DNA of 64,000 nt from an uncultured Victivallales bacterium (GTDB lineage Bacteria > Verrucomicrobiota > Kiritimatiellia > UBA8416): NCBI GenBank assembly GCA_964576795.1, contig CAZNWT010000005.1, positions 17,696-81,695 of the forward strand, read 5' to 3'. The translations under genes were made by a program, and so were the position numbers. The notes under the pieces were generated by a model. The model searched no databases. It was not told the origin of the DNA and saw only the letters and a list, made by a program, of their open reading frames with translations. Positions 9,720 to 14,945 of the stretch are shown here, one piece after another (position 1 is the stretch's first letter; the number at the start of each line of letters is the position of its first letter).

Positions 9720-11066
9720 ATGGTCGATGAACTGACTCAAGTTGAAGATAAAAATCTGTCCGAGCTTGATGAGCTACGCGAAGCGATTAGCACTGAACAA
9801 GGGCAGGGCCGTCGGGTCATGCTCTGGTTCATCACGGTATTCCTCTTTATTCTTTTGGTCGTGTTGGCCATGTTCCTTTTTTCTGGAATCTATATCCTGC
9901 GTAACTCCCAGCAAATGGTTAATGCTGTCGAGGATGTTGGTGATATGGCAACCGTCAACACCTTTCATCTCAGTAGTTTTACAAACAGACTTGCGCAGAT
10001 TGAGGGCGTCCAGATGCGCATCTCGGCAAAGCTCAATTCTGCAGACTTCGCCCGGGGGCAGGGATTTGATGCATTGGCATCCGAGCAACGCAAGCATGCA
10101 AAATGGATTGATGCGCGAGATGCTGCCGTTGAGCGCGACAAGCGTAACATCAATGATAGACTGCTTAAGCTTGGTGAACAGAATGCAGTAAACGCCCGTC
10201 AGCTTGCAGAAATTCAGAAGAAATTGGATCAGTTTGTTTCTGCAGGAGGCGTCGTTGTGGTGCCTGGCAATACAACATCGAAAATGTCCACTACGTCAGC
10301 TCCGGGAGAGGGTGATGCCGCCGAGTTGGTGGATTTTGGCATTATATCTCAGGAGTCCCTTGACGAGATGTTTACGGCGGCGTTGGCGTCTGTTGCTGAT
10401 CCCGTTCGTGAGCGGGATACCCCCGAGACCATATCTGTGGTGACATTTCCGAATGAGGATCGCTACGAAGGTGAATTTGTGAACGGGCTGATGCATGGCT
10501 GGGGATCGTACACCTACAAAAACGGCGATTGCTATGAAGGGGAATATGCGAATGATCTTAAGCAGGGGCGTGGGACGCTCACAACTGTTAATGGGGAGCG
10601 CTATGTTGGCGAGTTTGCCAACGACATGAAACAGGGAAAAGGCAGCCTCTCGTGTGCTGATGGGTTGCGATACATTGGCGATTTTCGAGACGACTTGATG
10701 ACGGGGAAAGGTGTGGCCTTTTACGCGAATGGAAACAAGTATGCCGGCGATTTTGTCAACGGGGTCCACCATGGGCGTGGTGCGCTTCGGTTTTTCAATG
10801 GTGACATCTACGATGGCGAATTTCGTAATGGCGTACGTACCGGGCGTGGTGCATATGCGTTTTCCGATGGTGGGCGTTACATGGGGGAATTTGTAAACGG
10901 CGTTCGTCATGGTATGGGCCGCTATATCTACCCCGATGGTGCCGAGTATATTGGCCCCTTCAAAAATGGCAAGAAGCATGGCGAAGGGATTCGTGTTTAC
11001 CCTAATGATGCCCGTCTTAAGGGACTATGGCGCGATGACGAATTCATCCGTGATCTTCAGAAATAA
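9720..11066 (+). CDS. Membrane-anchored protein with 8 tandem MORN repeats
   Basis: Single TM (VMLWFITVFLFILLVVLAMFLF), a coiled-coil region, then eight 23-aa repeats of the YxGEFxNGxxHGxGxxxxxxGxx MORN pattern at 10441-10995. Confidence 0.8.
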   Translation: MVDELTQVEDKNLSELDELREAISTEQGQGRRVMLWFITVFLFILLVVLAMFLFSGIYILRNSQQMVNAVEDVGDMATVNTFHLSSFTNRLAQIEGVQMRISAKLNSADFARGQGFDALASEQRKHAKWIDARDAAVERDKRNINDRLLKLGEQNAVNARQLAEIQKKLDQFVSAGGVVVVPGNTTSKMSTTSAPGEGDAAELVDFGIISQESLDEMFTAALASVADPVRERDTPETISVVTFPNEDRYEGEFVNGLMHGWGSYTYKNGDCYEGEYANDLKQGRGTLTTVNGERYVGEFANDMKQGKGSLSCADGLRYIGDFRDDLMTGKGVAFYANGNKYAGDFVNGVHHGRGALRFFNGDIYDGEFRNGVRTGRGAYAFSDGGRYMGEFVNGVRHGMGRYIYPDGAEYIGPFKNGKKHGEGIRVYPNDARLKGLWRDDEFIRDLQK

Positions 11067-11149: not shown

Positions 11150-11226
11150 CGGGGCGAGGGCGCCCCACCCCCATTATTGCAAGAATATGTTTGACTGCAG
11201 AAATGGAGGTGGACCGCCCTCGTTCC
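11150..11226. repeat. ~77-bp dispersed element with inverted termini, copy A
   Basis: ggggcgagggcgcccc…ccattattgcaagaa…aatggaggtggaccgccctcgttccg. It is ~85% identical to the copy at 14842-14917. Confidence 0.7.
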
Positions 11227-11276
11227 GAATATCTGTCCATTATTTCCAATTTTGCATTTTCCAATTTCAAATCTAC

Positions 11277-11304
11277 CCTAAGGGAAACCCTTAGGTCTTT
11301 TTTT
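11277..11304 (+). terminator. Rho-independent terminator
   Basis: The perfect hairpin cctaaggg-aaa-cccttagg is followed by tcttttttt. Confidence 0.7.
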
Positions 11305-11305
11305 G

Positions 11306-11334
11306 TTGACTATCGGTGTCGCTTTTGAAATAAT
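11306..11334 (+). promoter_or_regulatory. Putative σ70-type promoter for the secreted-protein cassette
   Basis: TTGACT, a 17-nt spacer, then AATAAT, about 200 nt upstream of the 11536 start codon. Confidence 0.3.
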
Positions 11335-11461
11335 CTAATCAGCTTAAGGAACAGCCTTAGTTGGAGGATGAGCGATGTTAGTTGGAAGATGCCATTTTTG
11401 GATACCGAAAATGAGGCACTTTCTTGTTGCACGAAATCGACGATAGTGCCGCAATTAAACC

Positions 11462-11496
11462 GTACTAAGGGAAACCCCTAGTACTGCTATTTTGAG
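11462..11496 (+). promoter_or_regulatory. Second near-identical hairpin plus U-tract in the 5' leader (attenuator-like)
   Basis: gtactaaggg-aaa-cccctagtac is followed by tgctattttg. It lies ~40 nt upstream of the RBS (gagaggga) and ATG at 11536. Confidence 0.4.
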
Positions 11497-11535
11497 TCTA
11501 GAGGTTAGAAAACAACTAGAAGAGAGGGAGTAATA

Positions 11536-12888
11536 ATGAAACGATTGACTGAGTATTTAGGGGTATTTCTGCTTGGGTTAGTATTGACCACTGCCGTAGC
11601 CCGCGCAGCAGTAAGTTTACCGTTTAGTGATGGTTTTGAGGATCAAGCCATCGGTGCCGCTCCATCGAATGTCTGGGTGATAGGAGCTGCTGATATCTAT
11701 GTTACGAATACCTCCCCGGCCATCGGCACTCAATCTCTCCAAATGGATGAGGGCGATGAGGACCCGGAGCTTACGCTTGCGGTAGGCGGAGGGGAGAGCA
11801 ACGTTTACTGGGTTGGCTCGGCAAAGGTCACGAAGGGTTCATCCGATCCCAGCATCGGCACCTCGGTGGCCGCCTTCTACATCACTACCAACAATGTGGT
11901 TCGGGCGAGTGATGGCGGAGACTGGACAAATTTGTATACACTTTCCAAGGATGCCGAAACTAACTGGATTAGCTATGCCGTGCATTTGGACTATACCAAC
12001 GGGATCGGGATGTGGGATCTCTACTTGGCTGAAACGAATAGTGCCGCAAAACTCACAAAGCGTAACTCGGCCCCGCTGGATTTTGCTGCCCAGGGAGCCG
12101 GTCTTGTAGAATTCGAGGTCACCGGAAATACGTCTCTTGATGCCGTCGCTATGAATATTGGATTCACGGCTGTGGGCGTTGCAACCTCGCCTGATGAACT
12201 TTCGGTAAGAACCGCCTCGCACAACTCAAACATATGGTATTCAGCGCGTGTGGGCGATGTTGGGGCGGCTAAATTTTTGGAGCCGGATGGCGATTACCTG
12301 AAGGAAGGGCTCGCTGTCGGCGATATCATCAAGTTCTACGATACCGATGCCTGGGAGACGTATAAGATTGAAGAACTCGGTGGTGTTCGCGTGTGGAGTG
12401 CGGTGAATTCAGCCGCTACTCCTATACTGTCTACTACTCAGAAGGTTGCAGGTGCTATGCCGATTACCAATGGTATTCCCTACTGGATTGTATATGCCAG
12501 TACAGCGACTGATGTCCCTCTGTTCTTCCCGTATGACCATGATCCGGCAGTGATAGCAGAAGAAACGCTTAGTATGGGCAGTTGCACGATTAATTCAAAC
12601 GGAACCGCCGCTGGTTGGACTACGCTCAGGTGGACATCGGCCAACACGCGGTCCCTGACCGCAGCCGGGTTGACGGATGCTGGTTTTGATCCAGATGTCC
12701 CTGACGGGATGGTGTGCATCTCAATCGAAAGTGGCACATGGAAATTTGTGCGCTCGGTGTGGGATAATGGCCAAGACCGCTGGGAGGTCCGTGGGGGCAA
12801 GGTTTCAACTGATGTATTTCAGCCAGACGAGGAAATCTGGTTATACAATCCAGGTGACGATGATATCACTTGGACAATCATCGATTAG
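11536..12888 (+). CDS. Secreted protein of unknown function
   Basis: Sec signal peptide MKRLTEYLGVFLLGLVLTTAVARA and a G/S/T/W/D-rich mature region. The RBS is gagagggag. Confidence 0.6.
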   Translation: MKRLTEYLGVFLLGLVLTTAVARAAVSLPFSDGFEDQAIGAAPSNVWVIGAADIYVTNTSPAIGTQSLQMDEGDEDPELTLAVGGGESNVYWVGSAKVTKGSSDPSIGTSVAAFYITTNNVVRASDGGDWTNLYTLSKDAETNWISYAVHLDYTNGIGMWDLYLAETNSAAKLTKRNSAPLDFAAQGAGLVEFEVTGNTSLDAVAMNIGFTAVGVATSPDELSVRTASHNSNIWYSARVGDVGAAKFLEPDGDYLKEGLAVGDIIKFYDTDAWETYKIEELGGVRVWSAVNSAATPILSTTQKVAGAMPITNGIPYWIVYASTATDVPLFFPYDHDPAVIAEETLSMGSCTINSNGTAAGWTTLRWTSANTRSLTAAGLTDAGFDPDVPDGMVCISIESGTWKFVRSVWDNGQDRWEVRGGKVSTDVFQPDEEIWLYNPGDDDITWTIID

Positions 12889-12922
12889 AAGCGTGTGAAT
12901 TCCAGCAAAATAAGGAGCAATG

Positions 12923-13916
12923 CATGAAGCCGATAGAAAAAATTAAGACGGTAGTGGGTGTCTTCGTTGCGAGCGCAGTGGTACTCGCAATTATGCTGAG
13001 CGCAGAGCGTTGTCAGGCGCAACCGAGCCCCGGTGTTGAGGGCGAGGATTGGGGGGTGCTTTCTGAAGAAGGGGCGGCAACCGTTTCCTATGGCGTTGAT
13101 GCGGTATCTGTTGATTTCGCCGCACGCAATACGTTAACACAACCGACTGCGAAGTACCGAACGATTTCCGTTTGTGTCGGTACCCAGAGCCCATTGTTCA
13201 CGGGAAATTATACGGATTCTGGGGTAACGGGCGTGGGATTCAGTCTGGCCGGAGTGGGCGAGGCGAAACCGGGCGTGATGGTTACGCTGGTAGGAAAAAA
13301 TGACCTGACATGGTATAATAGTTCAGTTGAGCTGAGCGAAGTGGATGGCGAGTGGCAGCCGAACAACATTTCATTTGAATATGAAGATGGATGGTATCGC
13401 GATGCTTTCAACACGGAAGCCAATTGGAATGCAGCCCTAACGGATGTGAAGTCTATTAGCGTGTATATTATGCAAAGTGGAAACCCTGCGCAGACCGGCT
13501 ATTTAAAGAGCTTCAGACTCCTGAACGCTCAGCAGACCGCCACTACCGCGGGGACACTCACGGCCCGTGTTCTTGCTTGGTTTGGGGTTGAGAATGAGCG
13601 CGATGCCGACAGGGGGCTTGATTCTGACGGCGATGGCATTTCAGACTACCTTGAGATTACAATGACGGAGACGGATCCGGGCGATGCGAATTCTGTTCTG
13701 AAAGTCGATGTGCAGAGGTTAGCGGTGGGGCTGCAATTGAAATGGGTTGTTGCTACCGGCAGATTGTATGATGTGTACCGGTGTGAGAATCTGGGCTCCG
13801 ATTTTACAGTTATCGCGAGTCGCATCGAAGCACTCTCGACTGGTCTTCTTGAGTATAACGATGTGACGGCAACTGGCGAAGGCCCCTATTTCTATCGAGT
13901 TAAACAAGTACAGTAG
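12923..13916 (+). CDS. Secreted protein with a calcium-binding-like DxDxDG motif
   Basis: RBS aaggag then ATG 12923. The signal peptide is MKPIEKIKTVVGVFVASAVVLAIMLSA, and the motif is DSDGDGISDYLE. Confidence 0.55.
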
Positions 13917-13938
13917 AGGACAGAAAGGAATCGCAAAA

Positions 13939-14742
13939 ATGAATATCCATTTCAAATACGTTTTACTTTTGACGGTGGCAGTATCCATGTTTACAGCGGT
14001 GGGCGAGGCTGCGAGCATTGTCGAGGATTGGACGGCCGGTGGTATCCGAGATTGGGATATTGCGAACGCGTTAGGAGGGGCTGCTTATGGTGGGCTTACG
14101 GAAGGTTCTCTTGGTGTTGGTCACGCTAACGCACTGATCATTTCGGGAGGAGCATCGTTAGTCGGACGTAGTGATGCAATCTCAGCCGATGATGCTGGGC
14201 TTTCAACCGACTTCATCGGAAACTACGCCACTGGTGTAGGTCTTGAAGGCGGCACCATCGGTGCTATTGAAGGGCTCTCTTTTGATTTCTATGTGGATTC
14301 GGGACCGGCTTCGGGTGGCCCCAGCGGTATCACCCTGTTTTTTGATACATCGTATGACGTTGGGTCGCCTGGTGGTGGCACTTGGTTTTTGGACATCACC
14401 GGTGTTGCGAACGGATGGGGTTCTTATGGCTCAAATATCGACACGTTAAGCCTCGCTTCTGTCTCCTACGGTGACTGGTATTCTGGTGAGTTTAGCACAG
14501 TTGGCGATTGGAGCGGTTCACTGGCGTTAGTCACGGATATTGGTATTGAGCTTGATTATCTTAGCTCGATAGCTGGACAGATTTACGGTGTCGACAATTT
14601 CACGCTAAGCGAGGGTAACTTCGCGGTTCCAGAGCCTGAGACCTACCTTGTGCTCGGAATGGCGCTGCTGTCTGTTGCCGTTGTCTTCCGCAAGCGGATC
14701 AGCGAGTCTTTGGCTGAAGCTCGTGCAATGTTGATGGTTTAG
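13939..14742 (+). CDS. PEP-CTERM-anchored secreted protein (exosortase substrate)
   Basis: N-terminal signal peptide. The C terminus VPEPETYLVLGMALLSVAVVFRKR matches the PEP-CTERM motif + TM + basic tail. Confidence 0.7.
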   Translation: MNIHFKYVLLLTVAVSMFTAVGEAASIVEDWTAGGIRDWDIANALGGAAYGGLTEGSLGVGHANALIISGGASLVGRSDAISADDAGLSTDFIGNYATGVGLEGGTIGAIEGLSFDFYVDSGPASGGPSGITLFFDTSYDVGSPGGGTWFLDITGVANGWGSYGSNIDTLSLASVSYGDWYSGEFSTVGDWSGSLALVTDIGIELDYLSSIAGQIYGVDNFTLSEGNFAVPEPETYLVLGMALLSVAVVFRKRISESLAEARAMLMV

Positions 14743-14770: not shown

Positions 14771-14803
14771 AAAGCCCTACCACATTGTGGTGGGGCTTTT
14801 TCA
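14771..14803 (+). terminator. Rho-independent terminator
   Basis: aaagccctaccaca-ttg-tggtggggcttt followed by ttc. Confidence 0.6.
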
Positions 14804-14841
14804 TGTCGTGGAGGTGGCCCGCTCTTGGGTTGCTTATGTCC

Positions 14842-14917
14842 GGGGCGAGGGCGCCCTAGCTCCATTGTTGCAGGATGAGGGTAGATTGCTGTAATGGAGG
14901 TGGGACGCCCTCGTCCC
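14842..14917. repeat. ~77-bp dispersed element with inverted termini, copy B
   Basis: ggggcgagggcgccctagctccattgttgcagga…taatggaggtgggacgccctcgtcccg. It sits in direct orientation relative to copy A. Confidence 0.7.
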
Positions 14918-14945
14918 GCGAGCGCAGGGAGGGGGGGGAGGGGTT

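Follow-up and report, generated by a model that had tools for sequence, protein, structure and literature searches.

A repeated hairpin box beside a terminator and two candidate tandem promoters ahead of a secreted-protein cassette in Victivallales-like bacteria

Dimeric helix-turn-helix regulators can control transcription from several operators at once, those of the lambda type being 17 bp long, and surface-layer genes with tandem promoters also carry structured leaders; 5′ stabilizers of the Shine-Dalgarno type offer a further comparison for the leader described here. Highly expressed genes for surface proteins, such as Lactobacillus slpA, are known to have tandem promoters (PMC3666127), and a review of mRNA decay (PMC3997798) lists primary papers on 5′-terminal stem-loop stabilizers, including those of the ompA and papA leaders. 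Here we describe an intergenic region in a 64,000-nt stretch of DNA from an uncultured Victivallales bacterium (GenBank contig CAZNWT010000005.1; the whole stretch is referred to as the window), a metagenome-assembled contig (European Nucleotide Archive ERZ27316330, k141_228472), where two closely similar hairpins, H1 and H2, precede a cassette of genes for secreted proteins. The original prediction, made from this single sequence, read them as a terminator and a transcription attenuator governed by a short leader open reading frame (ORF). With confidence evenly balanced, the reading we favor after comparison with relatives is a control region that would comprise a terminator and two tandem promoters, each with a start-proximal hairpin box, and not an attenuator. 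These element types are all known; the novelty lies in a very strongly conserved, lineage-specific box that occurs three times within a single control region.

Because the 450-aa protein that opens the cassette is nearly an orphan in direct searches, relatives were sought through the neighboring PilM/N and MORN genes and not through the 450-aa protein itself. Nine distinct genomes whose MORN protein is at least 67% identical share the order MORN, intergenic region, cassette (L003, L004, L005, L018, L020/L021/L022, L023, L024, L033 and one record without DNA). These are Victivallales/Lentisphaerota-like metagenomic genomes in which the leader lies between a type II secretion-like operon and a secreted/PEP-CTERM cassette, and the nearest relatives in the genome collection carry the labels Verrucomicrobia or uncultured Victivallales metagenome-assembled genomes. 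Eight leaders were aligned (alignment A3), identity figures always refer to the window, and transcript starts are predictions from sequence throughout.

H1 (CCTAAGGG-AAA-CCCTTAGG, 11277-11295, + strand) begins 210 nt past the stop codon of the MORN gene, on the same strand as that gene, and forms a perfect 8-bp stem (5 GC pairs, −11.9 kcal/mol) with a 3-nt loop and the tail TCTTTTTTT (T, C, then T7; 11296-11304), which a consensus scan calls as a terminator. It is present in all nine MORN-linked relatives, each time with a full U-run. By these features H1 is an intrinsic terminator of the upstream type II secretion system (T2SS)-like/MORN operon, as the original prediction had it. The T-run passes straight into the −35 box of P1, a predicted sigma-70-type extended −10 promoter (11306-11334, + strand) made up of TTGACT (11306-11311), a 17-nt spacer, a TG at 11326-11327 and AATAAT (11329-11334), with matches to the consensus at 10 of 12 positions and a predicted start at about 11341. 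TGTTGAC, the TG and the A-T-.-A-T positions of the −10 box are invariant in 8/8 aligned species, while the promoter spacers are just 13-50% identical, the combination of conserved boxes and variable spacer that characterizes sigma-70 extended −10 promoters. Apart from P1, no site in the 64 kb fits TTGnnn, 14-16 nt, TGn-NATAAT. The promoter proposed earlier, TTGACT-17-AATAAT, thus stands, its boxes being kept in all relatives.

The block from H1 to the −35 box is 86-97% identical in the seven relatives scored, with the junction of H1, T-run and −35 fixed within 1 bp across assemblies, and the H2 block is 69-92% identical across relatives. Third codon positions of the adjacent MORN gene reach only about 42% identity (40-45%) and the 450-aa orthologs 20-28% amino-acid identity; together with the spacer values, these figures mean that the short non-coding elements are far more constrained than their surroundings. 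The invariant or nearly invariant segments of the alignment are H1, its T-run and TGTTGAC; the TG and −10 box of P1; the block TTCTTGTTGC; TG-N-NATAAT; H2; and CAACTAGAG with its Shine-Dalgarno sequence. Because it is so strongly conserved, the leader appears to be a real control region, as originally suggested, although the attenuation mechanism proposed for it fails (see below). In two other loci (L011, L014) a CHASE2-cyclase gene precedes the cassette, and an H1-like box, CCCCTAATGGAAACCCTTAGG, is still found 9 nt (9-10) from TGTTGACT, the −35 sequence; since the box is kept beside the same −35 behind a different gene, H1 travels with the promoter.

In a further, more distant genome (L013, 2900-3000), MORN is followed by a hairpin whose T8 run joins TTGACT, and CATAAT and the cassette come next; the hairpin differs in sequence, and the very short leader lacks H2. 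As the fusion exists there with another hairpin, the terminator-promoter fusion would be older than the CTAAGGG box.

Downstream of P1 lies a second promoter-like box, P2 (11421-11455, + strand), composed of the invariant block TTCTTGTTGC (11421-11430), a −35 element TTGCAC (11427-11432), a 17-nt spacer, a TG at 11447-11448 and a −10 element at 11450-11455. TTGC (11427-11430), the TG and AAT (11453-11455) are invariant, and the spacer keeps its 17-nt length in 8/9 species with a sequence 31-44% identical. In all eight relatives the −10 element reads CATAAT, AATAAT or GATAAT; in the window it has degenerated to CGCAAT, and because of this decay P1 probably dominates in this genome. The P2 block closely repeats the P1 junction of T-run and −35 (T-rich run, TTGTTG(A/C), 17 nt, TGn-NATAAT), and an A-rich tract precedes the pattern in most species. 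Ungapped comparison of the two units gives 36/73 identical positions in the window and 38/73 in L003, with the matches concentrated on the T-run/−35, the TG, the −10 and the hairpin. We infer from this arrangement that P2 is a second promoter.

Three other interpretations of the P2 segment were set aside. An RNA hairpin between its −35 and −10 blocks, as drawn by RNAalifold, fits less well: the conserved block pairs with partners that differ by species, and a loop that keeps its length while its sequence varies is more in keeping with the spacer of a promoter. Long-range pairing between UUCUUGUUG (11422-11430) and CAACUAGAA (11513-11521) forms 8/9 pairs in the window but, judged by eye, is broken without compensation in L018 and L023. 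A sigma-54 promoter (GGCAC-N-TTGC) would have a spacing of 14 instead of 12, and its GGCAC is not conserved.

Between P1 and P2 the palindrome occurs a third time in degenerate form, as Hm (CTTAAGG-AACAG-CCTTAG, 11343-11360, + strand, −8.2 kcal/mol), which starts 8-10 nt past the P1 −10 box and occupies about +3 to +20 of the predicted P1 transcript. Its form in relatives is CTAGGGG-N3-(T)CCCTAG, and in L005 pairing is kept through two G·U pairs. Hm is followed by a Shine-Dalgarno-like GGAGG (11363-11367, + strand) and by two overlapping short ORFs on the + strand. One, of 37 codons, runs from ATG 11368 to a TAG at 11479-11481, inside the 3′ arm of H2, and has the GGAGG abutting its start codon without usable Shine-Dalgarno spacing; the other, of 23 codons in a different frame, starts at ATG 11375 with good spacing (11375-11446). 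The peptide that the original prediction placed between the hairpins therefore exists, but with 37 codons from 11368 and not 26, ATG 11375 belonging to the other frame.

A Shine-Dalgarno sequence and an upstream ORF (uORF) of about 28 codons follow Hm in 7/9 species, and L023 has a 28-codon ORF without a Shine-Dalgarno. Among species, three reading frames cross the invariant TTCTTGTTGC block (encoding SCC, FLVA and FLL) and the peptides are unrelated, which means that conservation does not extend to the uORF peptide and that coding does not account for the block. The region is T-poor in several species, which alone keeps frames open; in three species with normal T content, the frame bearing the ATG is the open one. 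Translation of the short ORF is possible, but it does not appear to be an attenuation signal. The idea that the uORF is the remnant of a duplicated gene start had support from L004 alone (z = 4), apart from a weak signal in L020, and was dropped.

H2 (GTACTAAGGG-AAA-CCCCTAGTAC, 11462-11484, + strand) is a 10-bp hairpin of −11.3 kcal/mol in which A11468 stands opposite C11478, as an A·C mismatch or a bulged A. The claim of a duplicated perfect hairpin thus holds for the presence and position of both copies, whose shared core is unique to this region, and not for the perfection of the second. H2 starts at the predicted +1 of P2 (7-9 nt past its −10 element) and at about +122 of the predicted P1 transcript, in which it folds with a probability of 0.7-1.0 in every species; in an RNAalifold consensus it stands alone. 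A transcription attenuator in which H2 would act as a leader terminator, set by uORF translation or by an antiterminator, draws on several features of the window. The H2 tail UGCUAUUUUG is a weak U-tract, with U at 5 of its first 8 positions; the −10 of P2 has decayed in this genome; the stop codon of the 37-codon ORF falls within H2; and 7 nt of the 3′ arm of Hm, read from the sequence, can pair with the 5′ arm of H2, although this complementarity follows from both being members of one palindrome family.

The comparison with relatives tells against such an attenuator. H2 itself is conserved, yet none of the eight relatives in the leader comparison has a U-run after it: their tails read CAAACUAG, CGUGUCUC, UGUUGUCU, UGUGGGUU and GCUGCGUC, among others, and the sequence beyond H2 reads CAAACUAGUUCG, CGUGUCUCGAAU, UGUUGUCUGUGU, UGUGGGUUGUGU, GCUGCGUCUGAU and similar. 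With a U-tract in the window only, a mismatched stem and no call in the + strand scan, H2 does not look like an intrinsic terminator. The alternative terminator and antiterminator pairings that the original prediction expected were sought with constrained folds in all species; blocking the 5′ arm of H2 costs 8-17 kcal/mol, the partners are species-specific, and no conserved alternative partner of H2 was found. The leaders contain no mutually exclusive antiterminator pairing and no conserved leader peptide or regulatory codons. Of the two features expected to be conserved upstream of orthologs, the hairpins are and the uORF, in frame or peptide, is not; the longer ORF moreover lacks usable Shine-Dalgarno spacing, and the conserved blocks fit a promoter better. 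Rfam searches gave no match in 11300-11535 at an E-value of 10 or below, and none that reaches the gathering score in the window or in six related loci. We regard attenuation as improbable, and conceivable only as a peculiarity of this genome.

What is conserved in the hairpins is foremost their sequence. The 17-nt core CTAAGGGAAACCCYTAG occurs exactly twice in the 64 kb, against 0.00 expected in shuffles, and looser palindrome searches of the 64 kb found nothing outside this intergenic region. An exact-pattern scan of Joint Genome Institute (JGI) metagenome contigs for GTACTAAGGGAANNCCCTAGTAC gave 0 matches; more distant members of the cassette family are present in JGI metagenomes. Across 25 sites the half-site is (C/A)CTARGGG with a total length of 17-19 nt, and the consensus CTARGGG-N3-CCCYTAG is conserved as sequence without compensatory change. 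H1 shows only disruptive changes: L020 has A·C, L023, L011 and L014 have U·C, UA is swapped to AU in L033, and L024 carries two changes. Half-site position 5 varies between A and G independently in the two arms, which explains why the A·C-mismatched state is the commonest in H2 (5/8 species). With one exception, every H2 copy keeps the 17-nt length. Only one H2 pair (221/231) shows A-U, G-C and A·C states, and since there are only nine independent leaders with key helices that hardly vary, covariation tests have no power. The disruptive changes in H1, the mismatched H2 and the box kept in L011 and L014 favor sequence recognition by some factor, whereas the G·U pairs of Hm, the U·G pairs of H2 in L018 and L024, an excess of G·U-type over A·C-type changes (about 7 to 2; weak evidence, binomial p about 0.09) and the full U-runs after H1 point to selection at the RNA level. 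The two layers, recognition of DNA or RNA sequence and RNA structure, may act together.

We hold it as a tentative possibility that CTARGGG-N3-CCCYTAG is the recognition element of a factor acting in trans, whether a DNA-binding regulator or a protein that binds the hairpin, and that this factor would couple the end of the secretion operon to expression of the cassette. A first form of this idea, which we find rather doubtful, makes the three palindromes operators of one dimeric DNA-binding regulator, with H1 doubling as a terminator where a U-run is present. The sites, with the half-site (C/A)CTARGGG and a fixed size of 17-19 bp, would lie at about −55, +12 and +132 from the P1 start and about +12 from that of P2, and the regulator would act as an activator at H1, as a repressor at the start-proximal sites, or as both. 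Sequence conservation without compensation, the independent A/G alternation and common mismatch, the constant H2 length, and the persistence of an H1-like box near the −35 in L011 and L014, where A7 precludes termination, are all as operators would have them. Operators account less well for the preference of non-Watson-Crick changes for + strand G·U (about 7, against 2 A·C), which suggests selection on RNA, or for the full U-run after H1 in all nine MORN-linked genomes. Moreover, no regulator gene was found within about 10 kb on either side, the 64 kb hold no further copy of the box, and H1-H2 spacings of 187, 190, 196 and 193 bp show no helical phasing.

A second form, which we consider unlikely, would make H2 (and Hm) the site of a sequence-specific RNA-binding protein or of processing, such as translational repression or RNase III-type cleavage, possibly modulated by ribosomes on the uORF. 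The mismatched or bulged A kept in 5/8 species and the robust folding of H2 in all predicted transcripts agree with this, as does the position of the uORF stop codon, which falls 2-10 nt before H2 in L004, L005, L018, L020 and L033 and inside or beyond it in the window and L024; a ribosome terminating there would open the 5′ arm of H2. However, H1 has the same sequence and lies upstream of the promoter, outside the cassette mRNA, H2 is fully paired in L018 and L023, the openness of the uORF is partly a by-product of T-poor composition, and a candidate protein is lacking.

The near identity of the two 17-19-bp palindromic sites bracketing the promoters also raises recombination, in which H1 and H2 would allow the 187-bp promoter segment to be inverted or excised for phase variation. 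Because each site is a palindrome, H1 and H2 are both direct and inverted repeats of each other. All independent assemblies (the window, L002, L003-L005, L018, L020-L022, L023, L024, L033) nevertheless share one orientation, on which ground we rejected an inverton; no recombinase gene was found within about 10 kb on either side, and the junction of H1, T-run and −35 is fixed to within 1 bp. Recombination of any kind here seems to us highly improbable.

In the tandem-promoter reading that we favor, H1 and its U-run would terminate transcription of the upstream operon and insulate what follows, with a T-run that is joined to the −35 box of P1, an extended −10 promoter close to consensus. Transcripts from P1 would open with the stem-loop Hm, followed by the Shine-Dalgarno sequence and a short uORF encoding a non-conserved peptide, and about 90 nt onward would come P2, which closely repeats the P1 unit (T-rich block, TTGnnn, 17 nt, TGn-NATAAT). 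Transcription of the cassette would start from P1 and, in most relatives, also from P2. Because it starts just past the P2 −10 box, H2 would be the 5′-terminal stem-loop of P2 transcripts, and in P1 transcripts an internal stem-loop, without serving as a leader terminator. We suggest that the duplicated hairpin arose by tandem duplication of a promoter-plus-hairpin unit, and we think it likely that Hm and H2 protect or stabilize the 5′ end of a strongly expressed mRNA, possibly aided by ribosomes loading on the uORF.

Several observations weigh against this arrangement. The −35 element of P2 fits TTGACA at only 3/6 positions, so that P2 would have to rely on its extended −10, and its −35 and −10 blocks are partly complementary as RNA (UUGUUGC/GCAAUAA), where RNAalifold draws a hairpin; for these two reasons the activity of P2 is put forward as a prediction. 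Hm is weak or absent in 4/9 species (L018, L023, L024, L033). The helices are 91% paired in the aligned leaders with covariation equal to that of shuffles, which is not what a purely structural role predicts. Finally, the H1-like box in L011 and L014 has an internal mismatch and is followed by A7, and would not form a terminator on either strand.

Beyond H2, the cassette start comprises a weak stem H3 (TCTAG...CTAGA, 11497-11520, + strand) that includes the conserved CAACTAG (11513-11519, + strand), and a Shine-Dalgarno GGGAG (11526-11530, + strand) ahead of the ATG of the 450-aa secreted protein at 11536; CAACTAGAG and the Shine-Dalgarno are conserved in 7/8 species. The cassette (11536-14742, + strand) encodes the 450-aa orphan protein, whose N-terminus resembles a signal peptide as judged from its sequence (11536-12888, + strand), a 330-aa protein with a sub-threshold TSP3-repeat match (12924-13916, + strand) and a 267-aa PEP-CTERM protein (13939-14742, + strand). 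This three-gene order was directly seen in L003, L004 and L005, and the first two genes in L018, L020/L022, L023, L024 and L033. A direct protein search with the 450-aa product returned itself and one 28%-identical match, to which a profile search added three more; Pfam, NCBIfam and PDB profile searches gave no match, and an AlphaFold model from five sequences had a predicted local distance difference test score (pLDDT) of 37 and was unusable. The family evolves fast, with syntenic orthologs (L003-L005, L018, L020, L023, L024, L033) only 20-28% identical. At the end of the cassette stands a strong hairpin of its own that resembles a terminator, AAAAGCCCTACCAC-ATT-GTGGTGGGGCTTTTT (14772-14803), unrelated in sequence to the H1/H2 box.

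Upstream of the leader is a type II secretion-like operon with T2SS E, F, G, K, a PilM/N fusion and M, the final gene of which encodes a 448-aa MORN-repeat protein (9720-11066). This MORN protein is a conserved final operon gene, with 81 matches at an E-value of 1e-60 or better, its own protein included. In the genomes L026-L032, where MORN is at most 65% identical, ruvA or other genes follow MORN directly; ruvA/ruvB lie within 14-55 nt downstream, in place of terminator and cassette, and neither the hairpin nor the cassette was found after MORN there. As ruvA/ruvB replace both, H1 and the cassette appear to occur together as one unit.

The spacer between MORN and H1 varies in content. In the window it holds one of two direct copies (11150-11227 and 14841-14918; 79% identical and the only two in 64 kb) of a 78-nt GC-rich element that folds as a long imperfect hairpin (z about −5.7 and −5.9). 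The copies flank the whole module of H1, leader, three-gene cassette and cassette terminator, and the element, which was not found at the equivalent places in L003, L004 and L005, may be of the repetitive extragenic palindromic (REP) or miniature inverted-repeat transposable element (MITE) kind. In L005, with a homologous spacer in L019 too, 400 nt separate the MORN stop from H1 and include tandem 43-nt repeats rich in GCAACGTTCAACG (L005 13868-13953), and L024 and L033 carry other long GC-rich hairpins at this position. Elsewhere, the 64-kb window also holds large ORFs of rpoB/rpoC size and two tRNA genes.

To our knowledge, almost nothing is known about the transcription signals of Lentisphaerota/Victivallales-like bacteria of the Planctomycetes-Verrucomicrobia-Chlamydiae (PVC) group, most of which are uncultured. 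The region described here offers a conserved near-consensus extended −10 promoter, a terminator and a repeated hairpin box, the last of these kept by very strong purifying selection. It precedes a fast-evolving cassette of secreted-protein genes and lies beside secretion machinery that may export the cassette products. Should the box prove to be a recognition element, it would be a new lineage-specific cis-regulatory motif of uncultured Victivallales-like bacteria, occurring at three places in a single control region and moving together with the promoter where the cassette lies elsewhere, as in L011 and L014. Metatranscriptome reads can be mapped to this specific region, reporters can be designed from it for the few cultured relatives, and it is a place to start looking for the factor that recognizes the box. 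There is also a lesson, in that a plausible attenuator drawn from a single sequence can dissolve on comparison with relatives.

Set against known systems, the locus resembles parts of several. With its GC-rich 8-bp stem, 3-nt loop and U7-8, and a T-run leading into the next −35, H1 is like other intrinsic terminators placed back to back with a promoter, but unlike ordinary terminators it has a hairpin sequence that is near-invariant among genomes whose neutral sites are saturated, and a mismatched copy without a U-run is kept at the same promoter in L011 and L014. A leader of about 195 nt in which a promoter is followed by a short ORF and a hairpin recalls the trp and his attenuators, from which it differs in having no conserved U-tract, antiterminator/anti-antiterminator pairing, regulatory codons or peptide. 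As in lambda-type operator sets, three 17-bp inverted repeats with a common half-site surround the promoters, here without helical phasing or a known cognate regulator, and with one site that also looks like a functional terminator. Like 5′-terminal stem-loop stabilizers, Hm and H2 start 0-4 nt from predicted transcript starts, and a Shine-Dalgarno and short ORF come after Hm; such stabilizers are constrained in structure and position and not in sequence, whereas here the sequence is conserved and mismatches are tolerated, and the likeness is one of geometry only. The Lactobacillus slpA gene is matched in having two promoter-like boxes about 120 nt apart and a long untranslated leader before a gene for a secreted protein. 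This locus departs from slpA in that P2 is a predicted promoter, the product is an orphan and not a known S-layer protein, and the same palindromic box follows each of the two promoters.

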